In this document: positions 4,787 to 10,323 of the stretch, in pieces
Numbering within the stretch: position 1 is the stretch's first letter
Layout of the letters: every line of letters starts with the position of its first letter
Source of the DNA: Casimicrobiaceae bacterium
GTDB lineage: Bacteria; Pseudomonadota; Gammaproteobacteria; Burkholderiales; Casimicrobiaceae
DNA: 64,000 bases
NCBI GenBank assembly: GCA_025056355.1
Contig: JANWWI010000004.1
Location: 24,300-88,299, forward strand
Reading direction: 5' to 3'
Program-made: the position numbers and the translations under genes
The notes under the pieces: model-generated
Told to the model about the DNA's origin: nothing
The model's database searches: none
What the model saw: only the letters and a program-made list of their open reading frames with translations

Positions 4787-5744
4787 GCTGATCAACATCG
4801 CACCGCTTCCGGCATTCATCAAAGCGCCGCTGGCCGAGCGCTTCGTGCTCCATGACCTCTACGGGGCCGGCAGCCGCGAAGCCCGCGCCGCGCTCATCGC
4901 GCAGGTGGGTCCGCGCATTCGCGGCATGGTGGCCTTTGGCGGCTCGAAAGTCACCCCGGAGCAGCTCGAGGCGCTGCCCGCGCTGGAGATCATTTCGGTC
5001 TTTGGCGTCGGCTACGACGGCATTCCGGTCGAATACTGCGCAAGCCGCGGCATCAAAGTGACCCATACCCCTGGCGTGCTCGACGATGAGGTGGCCGACA
5101 CGGCTGTTGCGCTCATCCTGATGACGCTGCGACGGCTGGTGGCGGCACACAAGTTCATCGAGCGCGGCGACTGGCTCAAGGGCCAGTTTCCACTCACGCG
5201 AACGCTTGTCGGAAAGCGTGTGGGTCTGGTCGGGCTTGGGCGCATCGGCCGTGCAATCGCCGAGCGCTTGGTCGCTCACAAAGCGCAGATCGCCTACCAC
5301 GCGCGCACACCCAAGCCGGTGGCATGGCCCTACTACGGCTGCGTGCTCGAGCTGGCGCGCCACAGCGATGTGCTTGTGGTGGCCACGCCCGGCGGTGCGG
5401 CCACCCGTCACCTGATCGATGCCTCCGTGCTTGAAGCCCTGGGACCCGAGGGCGTGCTGGTCAACATCGCCCGCGGCAGCGTGGTCGACGAGGCGGCGCT
5501 TGTGGCCGCCCTCGAGGCAGGACGCATCGCCGGTGCCGGGCTCGATGTGTTTGAGGACGAGCCGCGTGTGCCTGAGGCGCTTTTCCACCGCGACAACGTG
5601 GTGCTTTTGCCGCATGTGGGCAGCGCGACCGAAGAAACCCGCGCCGCCATGGGCCGGCTCTGCGTGGAAAACCTCTGTTTGCACTTTGACGGGCGGCCGG
5701 TTGCCACCCTCGTACCGGAGCTCGTCGGGCGGGTGTTGCCCTAG
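4776..5744 (+). CDS. D-isomer-specific 2-hydroxyacid dehydrogenase (glyoxylate/hydroxypyruvate reductase-like)
   Basis: 'GLVGLGRIG' Rossmann motif, 'NIARGSVVDE', 'GLDVFEDEP', 'PHVGSAT'. Confidence 0.92.
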   Translation: MPPELINIAPLPAFIKAPLAERFVLHDLYGAGSREARAALIAQVGPRIRGMVAFGGSKVTPEQLEALPALEIISVFGVGYDGIPVEYCASRGIKVTHTPGVLDDEVADTAVALILMTLRRLVAAHKFIERGDWLKGQFPLTRTLVGKRVGLVGLGRIGRAIAERLVAHKAQIAYHARTPKPVAWPYYGCVLELARHSDVLVVATPGGAATRHLIDASVLEALGPEGVLVNIARGSVVDEAALVAALEAGRIAGAGLDVFEDEPRVPEALFHRDNVVLLPHVGSATEETRAAMGRLCVENLCLHFDGRPVATLVPELVGRVLP

Positions 5745-7666
5745 GGCAGGCGCTTGAGCGGGATTGTGAGGCGCACGCTGTCGCGCCGTGCGAGCTCTAT
5801 CGTGAGCCCCTCCCCGATGCCGCTTTGCCACGGAAGCGGCAGCGTGTCCTCGCGCACGCTCACCCGCCAGCGCCCCGGTCGCACCAGGGGGAATTCAAAG
5901 CGCCCATCGGCGTCGCTGCGGGTGAAGTAGCGTCCATCGAGCACGATGAGCACATTGCCGGCGCCACGCTCGCCGGCATCGCGGCGGCCGTTGTCGTTTT
6001 CATCGAAAAACACCTCGCCTTCGATTGAGCCGGCGCCCGGCACCGCGGGGTTGCCCAAGACCTGCGGCGCGCGGCCGCGCTGCTCGCTCCAGCGTAACCA
6101 CGCGATCACATGGCTTCCGGCAAGCGGCACCGGCACCGTGGCCACCGGGGCAAGCGGATCGATCGAGGGACGCGGATCGAGCCGCCCGCGGGTGAGGCTG
6201 CCCTGCAGCTCAAGCACCCAGCCCGGCGCAAAGCGCCACTCGGCGAAGGCTTGGAGCGCCGCGCGCCGCTCACGCTCACCGCGCCGCTCATAATCCGCCA
6301 CCGCGCGCAGGAGCATTCCGCCCGTGGGCGAAAACTGAAGGTTGAGCGCAGCTCCGAAGAGCGGCAGCCGTTCGGAACGCCCCCGGTCGATCCACAACCC
6401 GCCGGTTGCCGAGGTGGCGAGCTTTAGGCCGTAGAGCTCGAGCCCGGCCCACTGCTGCTCAAGCGTTGCACGCCATTCGCGCTCGAAAACGCTCGCATCT
6501 CGCATCGCGAGCCGGGCTGCGGTTTCGCCAAGCGTGCTTCGGCTGCGGCAGTCAAGCTGGCCGCTCCACGCTTCCTCGCGGTAGTCGCGAAAGGCGAGGC
6601 CTGCCTGGCATTGGGCGTGCGGCCCAAGCCGCTGCCAGCCCGAAAGCGTGGCGTAGCGTCCGGCCGGGGTGTTTCGATTACGACTTTTCAGCTGCTCGAG
6701 GCTTGCTTCGAAACCCTGCTGTCCTCCGCTCCACTGAAGCCGCGCCTGCAAGGCCTCCACATTGCTCACAATCGGCGTGCCCGCCCAGCGCAAGTCCGGG
6801 TCAAGCCGTAGGGCACTGGCCCCGACAAGCCACCCGTTGCGACGCCACTCGGTTTCAAGCCAGGTGCCGAGGCGTTGCGCCTGTCCCGGCGGCTTGGAGA
6901 AAAGCTGTTGAGCAAAAAGCGTGAGCTCAGGCCCTTGATGACGAACGGCGGCCAGTGCCGAGCGGCCCGGCGACAGCGCAAGGCCGGTGGTGCCGATCCG
7001 GGTTTCATCGAGCTGTAGAGCCGCCGTCCAGGTGCCGGAGAATGCCGAGGCAAGCGGCTTGCCTTGCCACTCAACACCAAAGCTTGAGCGCAGGCCCTCG
7101 AGCCGTCGCCAGCGCGCAAACGGTGCCCCCTCGAATTGCCCGGGCGTGCCCGCACTGGCTTGGATGTGCAGCCCGAGTGCGGGGCTCCACCATTCGCCGC
7201 TTGCCCCCCAAAGCACTGGGGTGGGAAGGCCTACGCGCGCGGCACGGCGCACCACCGGGAGCGGCGCCCCGGCTACCACCCCGAGCTCATGATGGGCCCA
7301 CCACGTCCCGGAGAGCGGAAACTGGCGCTGGCGCAGCGAAAGCTGCGCGCTTTGCGGCCCCTGGATGAGTTGCGCCTCCAGCGACAGCGCACCGAAGTTG
7401 ACGGTGTCTAGCTGCGCGGCCAGGAGCGCTTGCTGGCCCAGAGGGTCTTGCTCTCGGCTTCGATGCAGGCCATAGCTCAGGCGAAACGTTCGCGGCAGCT
7501 CGGTGGCCGAGGCTTCGGCATCGGCGGCGCGCTCGGCGCCGGGCACGCTGAGCGGACGCTCATCGAGCACCCGGTCGACATACGAGGCGGCGGGCGTGTT
7601 TGCGCCCGTTTGTGTGCAGGCCAGTGCGAGCGCAAGTGCCGTCGCCGCAGACGGTCGCGGCATCAC
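5741..7666 (-). CDS. Putative outer-membrane usher-like beta-barrel with C-terminal SdrD-B/carboxypeptidase-regulatory-like domain
   Basis: Signal peptide and many amphipathic beta-strand patterns. C-terminal 'GSIEGEVFFDENDNGRRDAGERG...SDADGRFEF...PGRWRVSV'. Last gene of a secreted-protein operon. Confidence 0.65.
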   Translation of the reverse strand: MMPRPSAATALALALACTQTGANTPAASYVDRVLDERPLSVPGAERAADAEASATELPRTFRLSYGLHRSREQDPLGQQALLAAQLDTVNFGALSLEAQLIQGPQSAQLSLRQRQFPLSGTWWAHHELGVVAGAPLPVVRRAARVGLPTPVLWGASGEWWSPALGLHIQASAGTPGQFEGAPFARWRRLEGLRSSFGVEWQGKPLASAFSGTWTAALQLDETRIGTTGLALSPGRSALAAVRHQGPELTLFAQQLFSKPPGQAQRLGTWLETEWRRNGWLVGASALRLDPDLRWAGTPIVSNVEALQARLQWSGGQQGFEASLEQLKSRNRNTPAGRYATLSGWQRLGPHAQCQAGLAFRDYREEAWSGQLDCRSRSTLGETAARLAMRDASVFEREWRATLEQQWAGLELYGLKLATSATGGLWIDRGRSERLPLFGAALNLQFSPTGGMLLRAVADYERRGERERRAALQAFAEWRFAPGWVLELQGSLTRGRLDPRPSIDPLAPVATVPVPLAGSHVIAWLRWSEQRGRAPQVLGNPAVPGAGSIEGEVFFDENDNGRRDAGERGAGNVLIVLDGRYFTRSDADGRFEFPLVRPGRWRVSVREDTLPLPWQSGIGEGLTIELARRDSVRLTIPLKRLP

Positions 7667-8517
7667 GGCCGGAACTCGACCTCAAGGGCAAGCTTCCCGG
7701 CCGAGGCTTCGACCGCTCCCGAAAGCCGAAGCGGGTAGCGCAGCAGAGTTGTCCAGCGCTCCTGCGGGGCGGTGGGCACCAGAAGCACCCGCCGTGTCGT
7801 CCCGGGCAGGATCGGCACATCCTGGGGGCTCGCCTCGATGCGGCTGCCATCGGCTGCACGCAGTTCGACATACCCGCCCAGACGTCCATGGGCGTTGCCG
7901 CGGTTGGCGATTTCAAGCATCGGAAGCAGCGCACCGCCGTAGTCGCTGACCCCGGAGGAGACAAGCTCAAGCCGCGGTGCAGCCGCGCCCACAGACACAT
8001 AGACGATGACCGCGATACGCCCGGCCACACTGACGTTCAAGGCTCCGCCGGTCTGCGCGGCCTCAAGCCCCTCGATCATGATGGCGAAGCGGCACTCGCG
8101 GGCCGGGGTCTCGGCCGGCGGTTCGATTTCGAACCGAAAGCGGTGTTTGGCCCCGGGGCCCAGTGCCAGCTCGCGCCGCTCAAGCACCACCCAGGGGCGA
8201 CAGGACTCGGGGGCAAGGGCATCTTGAAAGACCGGCCCGCCGCTTGCATCGAGCTGCCAGTCGTTGGTGTAGATGCGATAGCGGCCGGTTTTCGCGCCCG
8301 CGTGTTCGATGTCGAACACCTGCCGCAGGCGCTCGCCGGGGCGCGCCTTGAGCTCAAAGCGCGGCGGGGAGACCAGTGCCGCGAATTCGGCACGCGCGCT
8401 CGCAGGCGCCACCGACATTGAAAGCTTGCCTGCGCAAACGACCACCCAGAGGAAGAACCGGGCCCATCCTGGTGCAGATTTAGTCTTCGTCGAAGTCGAA
8501 GCGAAACTCAAGATCAT
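7663..8517 (-). CDS. Putative periplasmic pilus chaperone (PapD-like/DUF916-like two-Ig-domain protein)
   Basis: 'VSPPRFEL..PGE', 'WVVLE..ELAL.PG', 'RIAVIVYV', 'IANRGNAHGR'. Start uncertain (8517 or 8418). Confidence 0.65.
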   Translation of the reverse strand: MILSFASTSTKTKSAPGWARFFLWVVVCAGKLSMSVAPASARAEFAALVSPPRFELKARPGERLRQVFDIEHAGAKTGRYRIYTNDWQLDASGGPVFQDALAPESCRPWVVLERRELALGPGAKHRFRFEIEPPAETPARECRFAIMIEGLEAAQTGGALNVSVAGRIAVIVYVSVGAAAPRLELVSSGVSDYGGALLPMLEIANRGNAHGRLGGYVELRAADGSRIEASPQDVPILPGTTRRVLLVPTAPQERWTTLLRYPLRLSGAVEASAGKLALEVEFRP

Positions 8518-8971
8518 ATTGAGCGCGCGACCAATTCGGCTGCGCCGTGAGCCGCAACTTCCATCGCTCGGAGAAGCCCTCTTCGGGTAGCGCGCCAGTG
8601 TAGACGAGCGCACGGCCGCCCGGCTGAAGCTGACCCGAGGCGAGCCGCCCGAGCGATTGCCACTCCACGGTGAGCCCGCTCGGCGCATCGGGTGCAAGCG
8701 CAAGCAAGATACGGCCGCTTCGCCCCGCGTAGGGGGAGGTGTTGATGCGAATCTGCACCTCGCCGCTTGCTTCCATCACGAAGGCCGAGCGATCAGGCGC
8801 GCTTGATCGGTTGAGCGTTCGCGTGGTGCTCCATTGCAGGCGAAGCGGTGCGGCCACAGTGCCACTGTCATCCAAGCGCACACCCTTGAGCTTGGCCTCG
8901 GCACTAAGCGTAAGGCCCGCGGAAAGGGCCCAAGCAAGCGATAAGACCAAGGCGCGCGAAGCGGTGCTCAT
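8480..8971 (-). CDS. Secreted beta-rich hypothetical protein (putative pilus adaptor/minor subunit)
   Basis: Signal peptide ending AEA; terminal alternating strand 'YDLEFRFDFDED'; tightly packed in the operon. Confidence 0.7.
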   Translation of the reverse strand: MSTASRALVLSLAWALSAGLTLSAEAKLKGVRLDDSGTVAAPLRLQWSTTRTLNRSSAPDRSAFVMEASGEVQIRINTSPYAGRSGRILLALAPDAPSGLTVEWQSLGRLASGQLQPGGRALVYTGALPEEGFSERWKLRLTAQPNWSRAQYDLEFRFDFDED

Positions 8972-8973
8972 GC

Positions 8974-9615
8974 TCAGGGGCTACTCAAGGTGTAGGAGAC
9001 CTGCGCGTTGTAGGTGCCCGCAGCTCGCAGAGCGCTGTTTGCGTAGCTGAACACGTGGCAGTTCTCGATGTAGGTGTTCGCGTTCACGGTCGTGAGCGTC
9101 TGCGTGCTCCCGGAAAACGTCCCCGCGGGGATGACGTTGGGGTTCCCGCTCCCCGGGGCTGAGACCGTCCAGCTCACCTGGCTGATGGGAATCGTATCCC
9201 CAGCCGCTGAGACCAGGTTGGCCGGTGAGGCAACACGCAGCGTGGCCGAGGCGGGTCCGTCGGCCGAATTGTTACGGCGGTAGGCCGCGCCGATGAGCAC
9301 GCTGTTGGGCACGCCGGCGCAAGTCGGCCAGTTATCTAGCAGGCTGTTGACCTGCGTGCTCGTGGTCGTCATCGTGACCGCAGTTCCGTTGCCGAGCTGT
9401 GCGGCGGGCACGTTAGCCTCGACAAGGTTGATCGTGGCGAGGTTGCCGTAGAGCACGCCGTTGCCGACATGCAAAAAGACGCTACGGGGCGCGGGCGTCA
9501 CCGAAAGCACCCACGCCTGCGCGGGCAGGGCCACACTCAAGGCAAGCGCACTTGCGGCCGCCCAGCCGAGCTTGGCATGAGCGCTGCGGCGATCATCGAA
9601 CGCTGCGGCCCGCAT
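8974..9615 (-). CDS. Secreted pilin-like subunit 2 (putative minor pilin)
   Basis: Signal peptide ending AQA; Thr/Ser/Asn/Gly-rich; two Cys; ends 'AGTYNAQVSYTLSSP'; paralog of 9697-10269. Confidence 0.7.
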   Translation of the reverse strand: MRAAAFDDRRSAHAKLGWAAASALALSVALPAQAWVLSVTPAPRSVFLHVGNGVLYGNLATINLVEANVPAAQLGNGTAVTMTTTSTQVNSLLDNWPTCAGVPNSVLIGAAYRRNNSADGPASATLRVASPANLVSAAGDTIPISQVSWTVSAPGSGNPNVIPAGTFSGSTQTLTTVNANTYIENCHVFSYANSALRAAGTYNAQVSYTLSSP

Positions 9616-9696
9616 GGTGATCGATAGGCGGCCAAAGAAAGACGCGGGCCAATCGGCCCGCGATGGCATGAGAGGTCCGATCGAAAATCAATGGCC

Positions 9697-10269
9697 TCAG
9701 GGCATCGAGGCCGTGTAGGTAATCCGCCCGTCGTAGGTGCCCGGCGGCACGACGTTCGAGTTCAGGTACTGGTAGCTCCAGGTCGCGGTGCGGTTGGTCA
9801 CCTTTCCTGAGTTGATCACAGGCTGTGCGCTGCTTCCAACCGCCGGGACATTGAAGTTCGTGGCGTCCGAAGAGCTCTTGCCGATCTGTGTCCAGGGGAT
9901 GGAATCGGGGCTACTGCCGCCGGTGGAGAGGCCGCCCGTGGTGCCGGAGGCAGCGATCGTGATTTGCCCGTTGTTGCCAAGCACGCGGGCGGTCACGCTT
10001 TGCGCGGCCGACGGCGTGCCGTTGCCGACGGTGGACGCAGCCGTGGTGTAGTCGAACGTGAGCAGATCGATCGTGTTGTTGTTGGCTAGCGTTGCGTGGC
10101 CCGTGCCGACCGCGAGGTAGAGGATGCGCGGGATCACGACCCGGATGTCGAGACGGGCGGTGGCGGAGCCAGCCCCGCTCACAAACTGCGATTCGGCATG
10201 CACCGGGGCGATTAGGGTGGATGCGCAAGCACATGCCAGCGCCGCAATCAAGTTTTTGCGAAAAGCCAT
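9697..10269 (-). CDS. Secreted pilin-like subunit 1 (putative major pilin)
   Basis: GGAGG Shine-Dalgarno; signal peptide ending VHA; alternating 'ATARLDIRVVIP' strand; ends 'PGTYDGRITYTASMP'. Confidence 0.75.
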   Translation of the reverse strand: MAFRKNLIAALACACASTLIAPVHAESQFVSGAGSATARLDIRVVIPRILYLAVGTGHATLANNNTIDLLTFDYTTAASTVGNGTPSAAQSVTARVLGNNGQITIAASGTTGGLSTGGSSPDSIPWTQIGKSSSDATNFNVPAVGSSAQPVINSGKVTNRTATWSYQYLNSNVVPPGTYDGRITYTASMP

Positions 10270-10307: not shown

Positions 10308-10323
10308 GCAAAAAATTTGCCAA
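10308..10323 (-). promoter_or_regulatory. Sigma54 (-24/-12) promoter of the pilus-like operon
   Basis: TTGGCAAATTTTTTGC: exact GG-N10-GC spacing with TGGCA and TTGC elements, about 40 nt before the ATG at 10269. Confidence 0.7.

Follow-up and report, generated by a model that had tools for sequence, protein, structure and literature searches.

Chaperone-usher pili are among the best understood of bacterial assembly machines, and their classification rests on the usher protein, the design of which is fixed: an N-terminal domain, a plug, a 24-strand barrel and two C-terminal domains. In canonical ushers the means of recruiting and gating are built in as the N-terminal domain and the plug, and both of these elements, together with the second C-terminal domain, are required. 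Here we analyze a five-gene operon within a 64,000-nucleotide (nt) stretch of DNA from a Casimicrobiaceae bacterium (assembly GCA_025056355.1, contig JANWWI010000004.1, positions 24,300 to 88,299 of the forward strand; hereafter the window), which, on evidence that is computational throughout, is probably a self-contained and unclassified variant of the chaperone-usher pilus pathway, and the most likely product of which is a thin surface fibre assembled by that route. The closest known type is the archaic (Csu/CupE) chaperone-usher pilus. A further described system that enters the comparison is the WxL/Elr pilus of Enterococcus faecalis and other Bacillota, with its DUF916/DUF3324 chaperone ElrE and its WxL pilins, which has been reported in Bacillota only and the chaperones of which have been reported to be disjoint from PapD chaperones (bioRxiv 10.64898/2026.10.17.759780).

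Directly supported for this operon are the order of its genes and the conservation of that order, the pilin-like fold of its first product (g1), the homology of its chaperone (g4), and the architecture of its pore (g5), a barrel plus one domain. An earlier note on this DNA, made from the sequence alone, had proposed a divergent fibre-assembly system; the elements of that proposal that were tested have held, none of the findings that it had named as refuting was encountered, and our results support it. A literature search returned no paper describing the five-gene family.

Gene layout, conservation and spread of the cassette

The minus strand of positions 5741-10269 carries five tightly packed, co-oriented open reading frames (ORFs), g1 to g5, all of which were confirmed as the earlier note had set them out:

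9697-10269, minus strand: g1, putative major pilin, 190 amino acids, signal peptide 1-25; first gene of the operon
8974-9615, minus strand: g2, putative paralogous minor pilin, 213 amino acids; an alternative ATG at 9669 would give 231 amino acids
8480-8971, minus strand: g3, conserved secreted protein, 163 amino acids, an orphan
7663-8517, minus strand: g4, predicted periplasmic two-domain PapD-superfamily chaperone, 284 amino acids from the ATG at 8517; the open frame extends to 8703
5741-7666, minus strand: g5, predicted compact usher-like outer-membrane protein, 641 amino acids, GTG start

The junctions are close, with a gap of 2 nt between g2 and g3 and overlaps of 38 nt between g3 and g4 and of 4 nt (GTGA) between g4 and g5. 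The gaps of 27 bp or less that had been claimed for the operon thus stand at these three junctions and fail at the first, where the spacer between g1 and g2 is 81 nt with the 213-residue start of g2 and 27 nt only when counted from the upstream ATG at 9669. Each of the five translations opens with what reads as a plausible Sec signal peptide, as had likewise been claimed, and the base composition of the cassette is uniform with that of the surrounding DNA.

Relatives were sought by scanning species-representative genomes with a back-translated g4 pattern, which gave 102, of which 80 loci were examined. In the gene-neighbourhood survey proposed by the earlier note, made by tblastn with all five window proteins, the same five genes stand in the identical order in ~75 of these 80 related loci from other species, an arrangement far beyond chance. 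The hosts lie in the Beta- and Gammaproteobacteria (Comamonadaceae, Lysobacteraceae, Steroidobacteraceae and Usitatibacter), with carrier genera that include Hydrogenophaga, Variovorax, Polaromonas, Lysobacter, Arenimonas, Pseudoxanthomonas and Luteimonas. No sixth gene or regulator is conserved beside the cassette in the related loci, where one sees only lineage-specific synteny. As environmental bacteria, the carriers live in soil, water and activated sludge, and from these habitats a role in surface attachment and biofilm formation would be predicted as likely.

The family is large. Among 1.84 billion representatives at 50% identity, the g4 profile finds 116 at E-value (E) <= 1e-30 and 875 at E <= 1e-10, and the g4 family comprises at least 3040 clusters at 90% identity; a full-length g5 homologue is present in 13 of 400 genomes (~3%) in an even sample of the class. 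Within the genus of the window, on the other hand, just 5 of 24 genomes have a g4 homologue, and these same-genus homologues are 35-46% identical to g4, as against up to 54% in other genera. Because the closest g4 homologues sit in other genera and the genus itself is patchy, the pattern suggests horizontal spread of the cassette. The cassette was also seen on contigs of metagenome-assembled genomes assigned to Pseudotabrizicola (a 399-kb contig), Phycisphaerales, Opitutae and Rhizobium (L008, L024, L032 and L072; g4 identity 44-50%), which reflect either transfer beyond the Beta- and Gammaproteobacteria or the mis-binning of short contigs. In the window itself the flanking genes are, from their translations, presumably housekeeping genes, namely gpmI and, at the opposite end of the cassette, a 2-hydroxyacid dehydrogenase-like gene.

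Chaperone, pilins, pore and orphan protein

The most informative of the five proteins as to ancestry is g4, which the earlier note had described as a two-domain protein with PapD- and DUF916-like features, a description that profile comparison bears out. For comparison, eight proteins of the DUF916/DUF3324 type and twelve of the WxL type were taken from Bacillota plasmids, and thirteen PF00345-positive chaperones from related Proteobacteria, the neighbours of which are Pfam-Usher genes and pilins with spore-coat-U-like ends. Against these PapD-type chaperones, g4 aligns over both domains with an hhalign probability of 97.1% (E 5.5e-11, 171 columns); against the DUF916/DUF3324 set it does so, again over both domains, at 85.4% (E 5.8e-6), while the two reference families align with each other at 68% (E 4.7e-5) over the N-domain only. 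A HMMER cross-search of 2792 ORFs gives the same ordering: 58 g4-family proteins are recovered with the PapD-type hidden Markov model (HMM), at a best E of 3e-9, and 11 with the DUF916 HMM, at a best E of 4e-5, and neither model detects the other's family. On the strength of these figures, g4 is placed as a PapD-superfamily chaperone between the PapD and DUF916/DUF3324 families, nearer to PapD and outside the PapD family as Pfam defines it.

Curated models say less. No Pfam or NCBIfam family is matched by g4; at E < 1, PapD_N is found in 1 of 70 g4 orthologues, the window protein giving no match, and PF06030 is weakly matched by 29 of the 70 (best E 0.0066), all under its 27.3-bit cut-off, with PF11797 not listed, so that the above-threshold pairing of PF06030 with PF11797 that marks WxL chaperones is absent from g4. 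The best and only meaningful PDB match of the g4 profile is EfmWxLIP1, a DUF916/DUF3324 WxL-interacting protein (E 0.016), and no PapD-type chaperone structure is among the matches. The protein carries an invariant cysteine pair, C106/C142, and has no membrane anchor, ending directly after its second domain (...LALEVEFRP), at a point beyond which the DUF916/DUF3324 template in the hhalign alignment runs on for ~70 columns that include a hydrophobic tail. Some g4 orthologues are named "fimbrial chaperone" or "molecular chaperone" in IMG and UniRef records. No canonical PF00345 chaperone was found elsewhere in the same genome, a point that counts for the chaperone-usher reading of the operon.

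The two subunits are paralogous, as had been claimed (hhalign 99.8%, E 2e-27), and the C-terminal motifs described for them are found as stated, GTYDGRITYTASMP and GTYNAQVSYTLSSP. Neither has a Pfam, NCBIfam or PDB sequence match as a single sequence or as a profile. Mature g1 was folded with AlphaFold2 (AF2) from a 72-sequence alignment, alone and not joined to g2 through the in-frame stop, since mixed MAFFT alignments misplace g1 orthologues onto g2. In a Foldseek search with the resulting model (predicted local distance difference test, pLDDT, 94.2), chaperone-usher pilins make up 48 of the 50 top-ranked PDB structures, among them CS20, FimA, CS17, FimG, PapA, PapE, CfaB and CsuA/B, with E from 1e-4 to 2e-2 and template modelling (TM) scores of ~0.3-0.55; the WxL structure 9i25_A, which was in the searched library, is absent from these 50.

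In known pilins, the last strand is the one that pairs with the donor strand. The model of g1 has an Ig-like fold that wants this partner: its final, F-equivalent strand comprises residues 158-163 of 165, and since it ends two residues before the chain does, no further strand follows. At the other end, mature residues 1-24 are confidently modelled and unpaired, forming no intramolecular ladder. This extension is the most conserved part of the protein, with the consensus AES-x-F-x-TGAG-x-L-x-A-x-ARLDF-x-V-x-IP and alternating hydrophobic residues, and the mature N-terminus ESQFVSGAGSATARLDIRVVIP is a candidate donor strand. The view that the subunits are fibre-type pilins is thus sustained for g1, which models as a pilin of the chaperone-usher type. 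In g2 just ~9 residues precede the equivalent core strand, and the orthologue alignment has two invariant cysteines, C99 and C186. A tandem duplicate of the g1-type gene lies between g1 and g2 in 7 loci (including L018, L036, L054, L061, L070 and L084), which hence have three pilin genes; such duplication of pilin genes is typical of fimbrial operons.

Comparison of g1 and g2 with spore-coat-U (SCPU)-type pilins gives hhalign probabilities of 2-3%, and with WxL proteins 9%, the C-terminal strand motif being all that is common in either case; no g1 or g2 orthologue matches the Pfam WxL model (PF13731). A DUF4402 identity for g2 was considered and rejected: the label comes from the UniRef record of an Arenimonas terrae orthologue (L062:4908-5546) and is not reproduced by Pfam over 77 g2 orthologues. 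A literature search on DUF4402 found no paper.

For g5, claimed to be a 641-residue beta-barrel-like protein, the AF2 model (69 sequences, pLDDT 85.6) does predict a large barrel, of ~26 strands across residues 59-530 as counted from DSSP rather than from coordinates, followed by a C-terminal beta-sandwich at 546-639, with the chain ending at 641. The ten best PDB matches of this model in Foldseek are all FimD/PapC ushers (E 1e-13 to 4e-9). No segment between strands exceeds ~21 residues, which leaves no room for a plug. Ahead of the barrel there are ~35 low-confidence residues only. The statements that the outer-membrane protein is shorter than canonical ushers and that the operon encodes no large tip adhesin are both correct.

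At the sequence level, the hhalign probability of g5 against five Pfam-Usher proteins is 93.6% across the final barrel strands together with the C-terminal domain, and 75% for the C-terminal domain alone, which bears a DxNxDG...E calcium motif; against a CooC-like usher the figure is 0.1%. The earlier note had singled out a strong full-length match to a characterised usher family as evidence that would speak against it, and this was looked for: PF00577, PapC_N and PapC_C are matched at E < 1 by none of 69 g5 orthologues, as compared with five control ushers from relatives, which match PF00577 at E 1e-27 to 1e-34. A word-indexed homologue search with g5, both as a single sequence and as a profile, returned the query itself only. 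Proteins of the family go by the database names "hypothetical protein", "SdrD B-like domain-containing protein" and "carboxypeptidase-like regulatory domain-containing protein". We regard an usher-like role for g5 as well supported by its context and predicted shape, and shared descent with ushers as only moderately so.

Several further observations concern the pore. Its low-confidence N-terminal segment (residues ~24-58, window positions 7490-7600) holds a conserved YxDRxI motif and a short helix, and could be a docking or occluding peptide in place of the usher N-terminal domain. Stand-alone barrels of 514-559 amino acids (L119:5687-7363, L120:5420-6985 and L121:4107-5648) are homologous to the g5 barrel at E 1e-23 to 1e-42; these have no C-terminal domain, no pilus genes nearby and no Pfam match, and they make up an unnamed barrel family from which the g5 pore may have been recruited. 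There is also a second subfamily of loci (L116:8394-15113, from the same genus, G022:C69; L117; L118) in which the order is pore, pilin, pilin, g3-like, chaperone, pilin. The pore of this subfamily aligns to g5 over residues ~340-1012 (hhalign 100%), has no Pfam Usher match, and carries an additional N-terminal extension of ~270 residues with LysM-like repeats read by eye, e.g. YVATYTTLRGDSLQSLV.

In most related loci a tblastn search detects the remaining protein, g3, at E <= 1e-3. Its ORF was extracted from 78 related loci, in which it immediately precedes the gene of the chaperone and is, as a rule, coupled to it. It has no Pfam, NCBIfam or PDB match as a single sequence or in profile searches, and against the pilins, the chaperone, ushers including the CooC-like one, the g5 domains, WxL proteins and SCPU-type pilins its best hhalign probability is 16%. 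It contains no cysteine and hence is no lipoprotein. As the pore is without recruiting and gating domains, the most economical guess for g3 is a role in trans at that pore. The narrower idea that g3 is the detached N-terminal domain or plug of an usher finds no sequence support in the hhalign comparisons and is speculation.

A proposed assembly route and its rivals

Two elements in the noncoding DNA of the operon bear on its expression:

10308-10323, minus strand: putative sigma-54-type -24/-12 promoter box (TTGGCA-N6-TTGC), from a reading of the sequence
9643-9662, minus strand: predicted GC-rich hairpin with a T-rich tract after it, in the spacer between g1 and g2

The promoter box lies ~40 nt upstream of the g1 ATG, with a GGAGGA ribosome-binding site downstream of it. 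Of 69 loci, 26 have a TGGC-N8-TGC box in the 250 nt that precede g1, where the background rate would predict ~5 (the carriers are mostly Lysobacteraceae loci); rpoN is present in the same genome, and no enhancer-binding protein gene is adjacent to the cassette. Transcription is probably sigma-54 dependent, which among chaperone-usher operons is, as far as is known, an unusual form of control. Across related loci the median length of the g1-g2 spacer is 88 nt, compared with 3 nt or less at the other junctions; 42 of 66 such spacers have a predicted fold of z < -2, and many of these carry U tracts of the terminator-like kind. A hairpin after the major-subunit gene is known from fimbrial operons, and this one is likely to be a partial terminator or mRNA stabiliser that would raise g1 over the downstream genes.

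Fibre formation itself, strand complementation and exchange, and the roles of g2 and g3 are what we infer from the foregoing. In the route that we propose, all five products would be exported by Sec, with g1 over-produced relative to the others by virtue of the hairpin that follows it. In the periplasm, g4 would cap g1 and g2 by donating a strand, for which its conserved GRIGVIVY segment is the candidate, into the groove left by the missing last Ig-like strand. The g5 barrel would serve as outer-membrane pore and assembly platform, at which the N-terminal extension of an incoming g1 (A-x-A-R-L-D-F-x-V-x-I-P) would displace the chaperone strand from the previous subunit in donor-strand exchange, and a g1 polymer would thereby be threaded outward. 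Given its short extension and conserved disulfide, g2 would most likely be the first (distal) or an adaptor subunit. The function otherwise missing, be it recruitment, gating or termination, would be supplied by g3, which is translationally coupled to the chaperone. One may go further and see here a "split, plugless usher", in which a barrel with one C-terminal domain is served in trans by g3 for recruiting and gating, and in which the g4 family bridges PapD and DUF916/DUF3324 ancestry; we hold this fuller version to be doubtful.

A number of points weigh against a chaperone-usher fibre. The Pfam and NCBIfam models of ushers, PapD chaperones and pilin families all stay below threshold, which is also how the earlier note's claim of no fit to the classical families was borne out. 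The open groove of g1 is read from DSSP and chain topology rather than from coordinates. As to g5, it does not have the architecture of a canonical usher, there being no N-terminal domain, plug or second C-terminal domain; its barrel alone gives only 13-21% against ushers in hhalign, which is not significant; its TM scores in Foldseek are only ~0.4, with MtrB eleventh at a similar score, and the resemblance to ushers may stem in part from barrel size; relatives of the barrel occur outside pilus loci; and its C-terminal domain is equally a generic SdrD-B/carboxypeptidase-regulatory-like fold, the SdrD_B and CarboxypepD_reg models matching 69 of 69 orthologues. Much of this is what one would expect if the cassette encoded non-polymerising periplasmic or surface Ig-like proteins, as in the chaperone-assisted export of monomeric adhesins or in an envelope complex, and if g5 were a porin-like channel from the orphan barrels, with a calcium-binding periplasmic domain and no relation to ushers; the unexplained g3 speaks for this account as well. 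We nevertheless think this account rather unlikely, for the strict linkage of a pilin fold minus its final strand, a paralogue of it, a PapD-superfamily chaperone and a large barrel is the signature of a donor-strand system, and the hairpin after the first pilin gene and the tandem g1-type duplicates point the same way.

A different challenge comes from the Gram-positive side, namely that the operon is a diderm version of the WxL (Elr-type) pilus, with g4 a DUF916/DUF3324 chaperone that has lost its anchor, g1 and g2 highly diverged WxL domains, and g5 independently recruited. The EfmWxLIP1 match and the excess of weak PF06030 over PapD_N matches among g4 orthologues speak for it, as do the two-domain alignment to DUF916/DUF3324 and a weak hhalign alignment of g2 to WxL proteins in which both WxL-motif regions and the C-terminal AGxYxxxxTxTL strand are collinear. 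The A-x-A-R-L-D-F of g1, moreover, resembles the WxL donor-strand consensus [S/T]-x-[G/A]-x-[V/I]-x-F (bioRxiv 10.64898/2026.10.17.759780). Yet g4 is nearer to PapD-like chaperones by both hhalign and HMMER, g1 and g2 reach only the 9% noted above against WxL proteins, 9i25_A is missed by a g1 model that finds chaperone-usher pilins almost exclusively, and neither a transmembrane anchor nor an LPxTG protein or a sortase is present, all of which makes such an origin improbable, to about the same degree as the monomeric-export account. That the genes are real and the cassette has decayed or become non-functional in this genome might be argued from its patchy presence in the genus and from closest relatives in other genera, which suggest horizontal acquisition. 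Against this, all five frames are intact with signal peptides, every family-invariant residue is present in the window sequence (the first row of every alignment), and the promoter box and ribosome-binding site are in place, so that decay seems very unlikely indeed.

Significance and comparison with described systems

The cassette is common, and it escapes the standard models of Pfam and NCBIfam, so that surveys built on these miss a whole branch. If fibres are made without a plug or N-terminal domain, one must ask how subunits are recruited and how a channel of ~26 strands is kept shut; if the system is fibre-forming, it would also offer a smaller setting in which to study donor-strand exchange. 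In the g4 family, PapD-type chaperones and the chaperones of the WxL pilus, described in 2026, are concretely connected at the level of sequence, which bears on the question of whether diderm and monoderm donor-strand pili have a common origin. Were the split, plugless usher and the bridge between chaperone families both true, the view of these chaperone families as disjoint, and of WxL-type assembly as being without diderm relatives, would have to be revised.

Like the archaic, or sigma-clade, pili (Csu of Acinetobacter, CupE of Pseudomonas), the cassette combines one or more pilins with a periplasmic two-domain chaperone and an outer-membrane pore. Its chaperone aligns over both domains with archaic-type chaperones of related bacteria, the g1 fold matches CsuA/B among other chaperone-usher pilins, and the pilin C-terminal strand motif (P)AGxYxxxhThT is held in common. 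Unlike these pili, it gives no PF00345, PF00577 or SCPU matches in Pfam, and its pilins are as distant from the SCPU type as noted; its 641-residue pore has no N-terminal domain, plug or second C-terminal domain and carries an SdrD-B-like domain with a calcium motif; it has no two-domain tip adhesin of the CsuE kind; and it includes the additional conserved orphan gene g3. The classical and alternative pili (Fim, Pap, CFA/I, CS1) supply the best structural matches of g1 (CS20, FimA, CS17, FimG, PapA, CfaB) and of g5 (FimD, PapC), and they share the hairpin after the major-subunit gene. They differ in that no sequence similarity to them is detectable in the pilins and barrel, in that the usher architecture is here reduced, and in that the chaperone TcfA is reached only at E 0.024, with the CooC-like usher as remote as stated above. 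The system, then, would work like a chaperone-usher pathway but fails its operational definition, that is, a PF00577 usher built of the usual usher domains, and no described pilin family includes its pilins.

With the WxL/Elr pilus the cassette shares a proposed chaperone-guided donor-strand assembly, a chaperone detectably related over both domains, and similar donor-strand and C-terminal strand motifs. It departs from that pilus in that g4 has no C-terminal transmembrane helix, that g1 and g2 are not recognisable WxL domains, that no LPxTG terminator or sortase gene lies in or beside the cassette, and that it has an outer-membrane pore and is hosted by diderm Proteobacteria. With no anchor, no WxL pilins and no sortase, the g4 family is, by its sequences, placed outside the WxL/Elr system, and yet it links the two chaperone families in sequence space.

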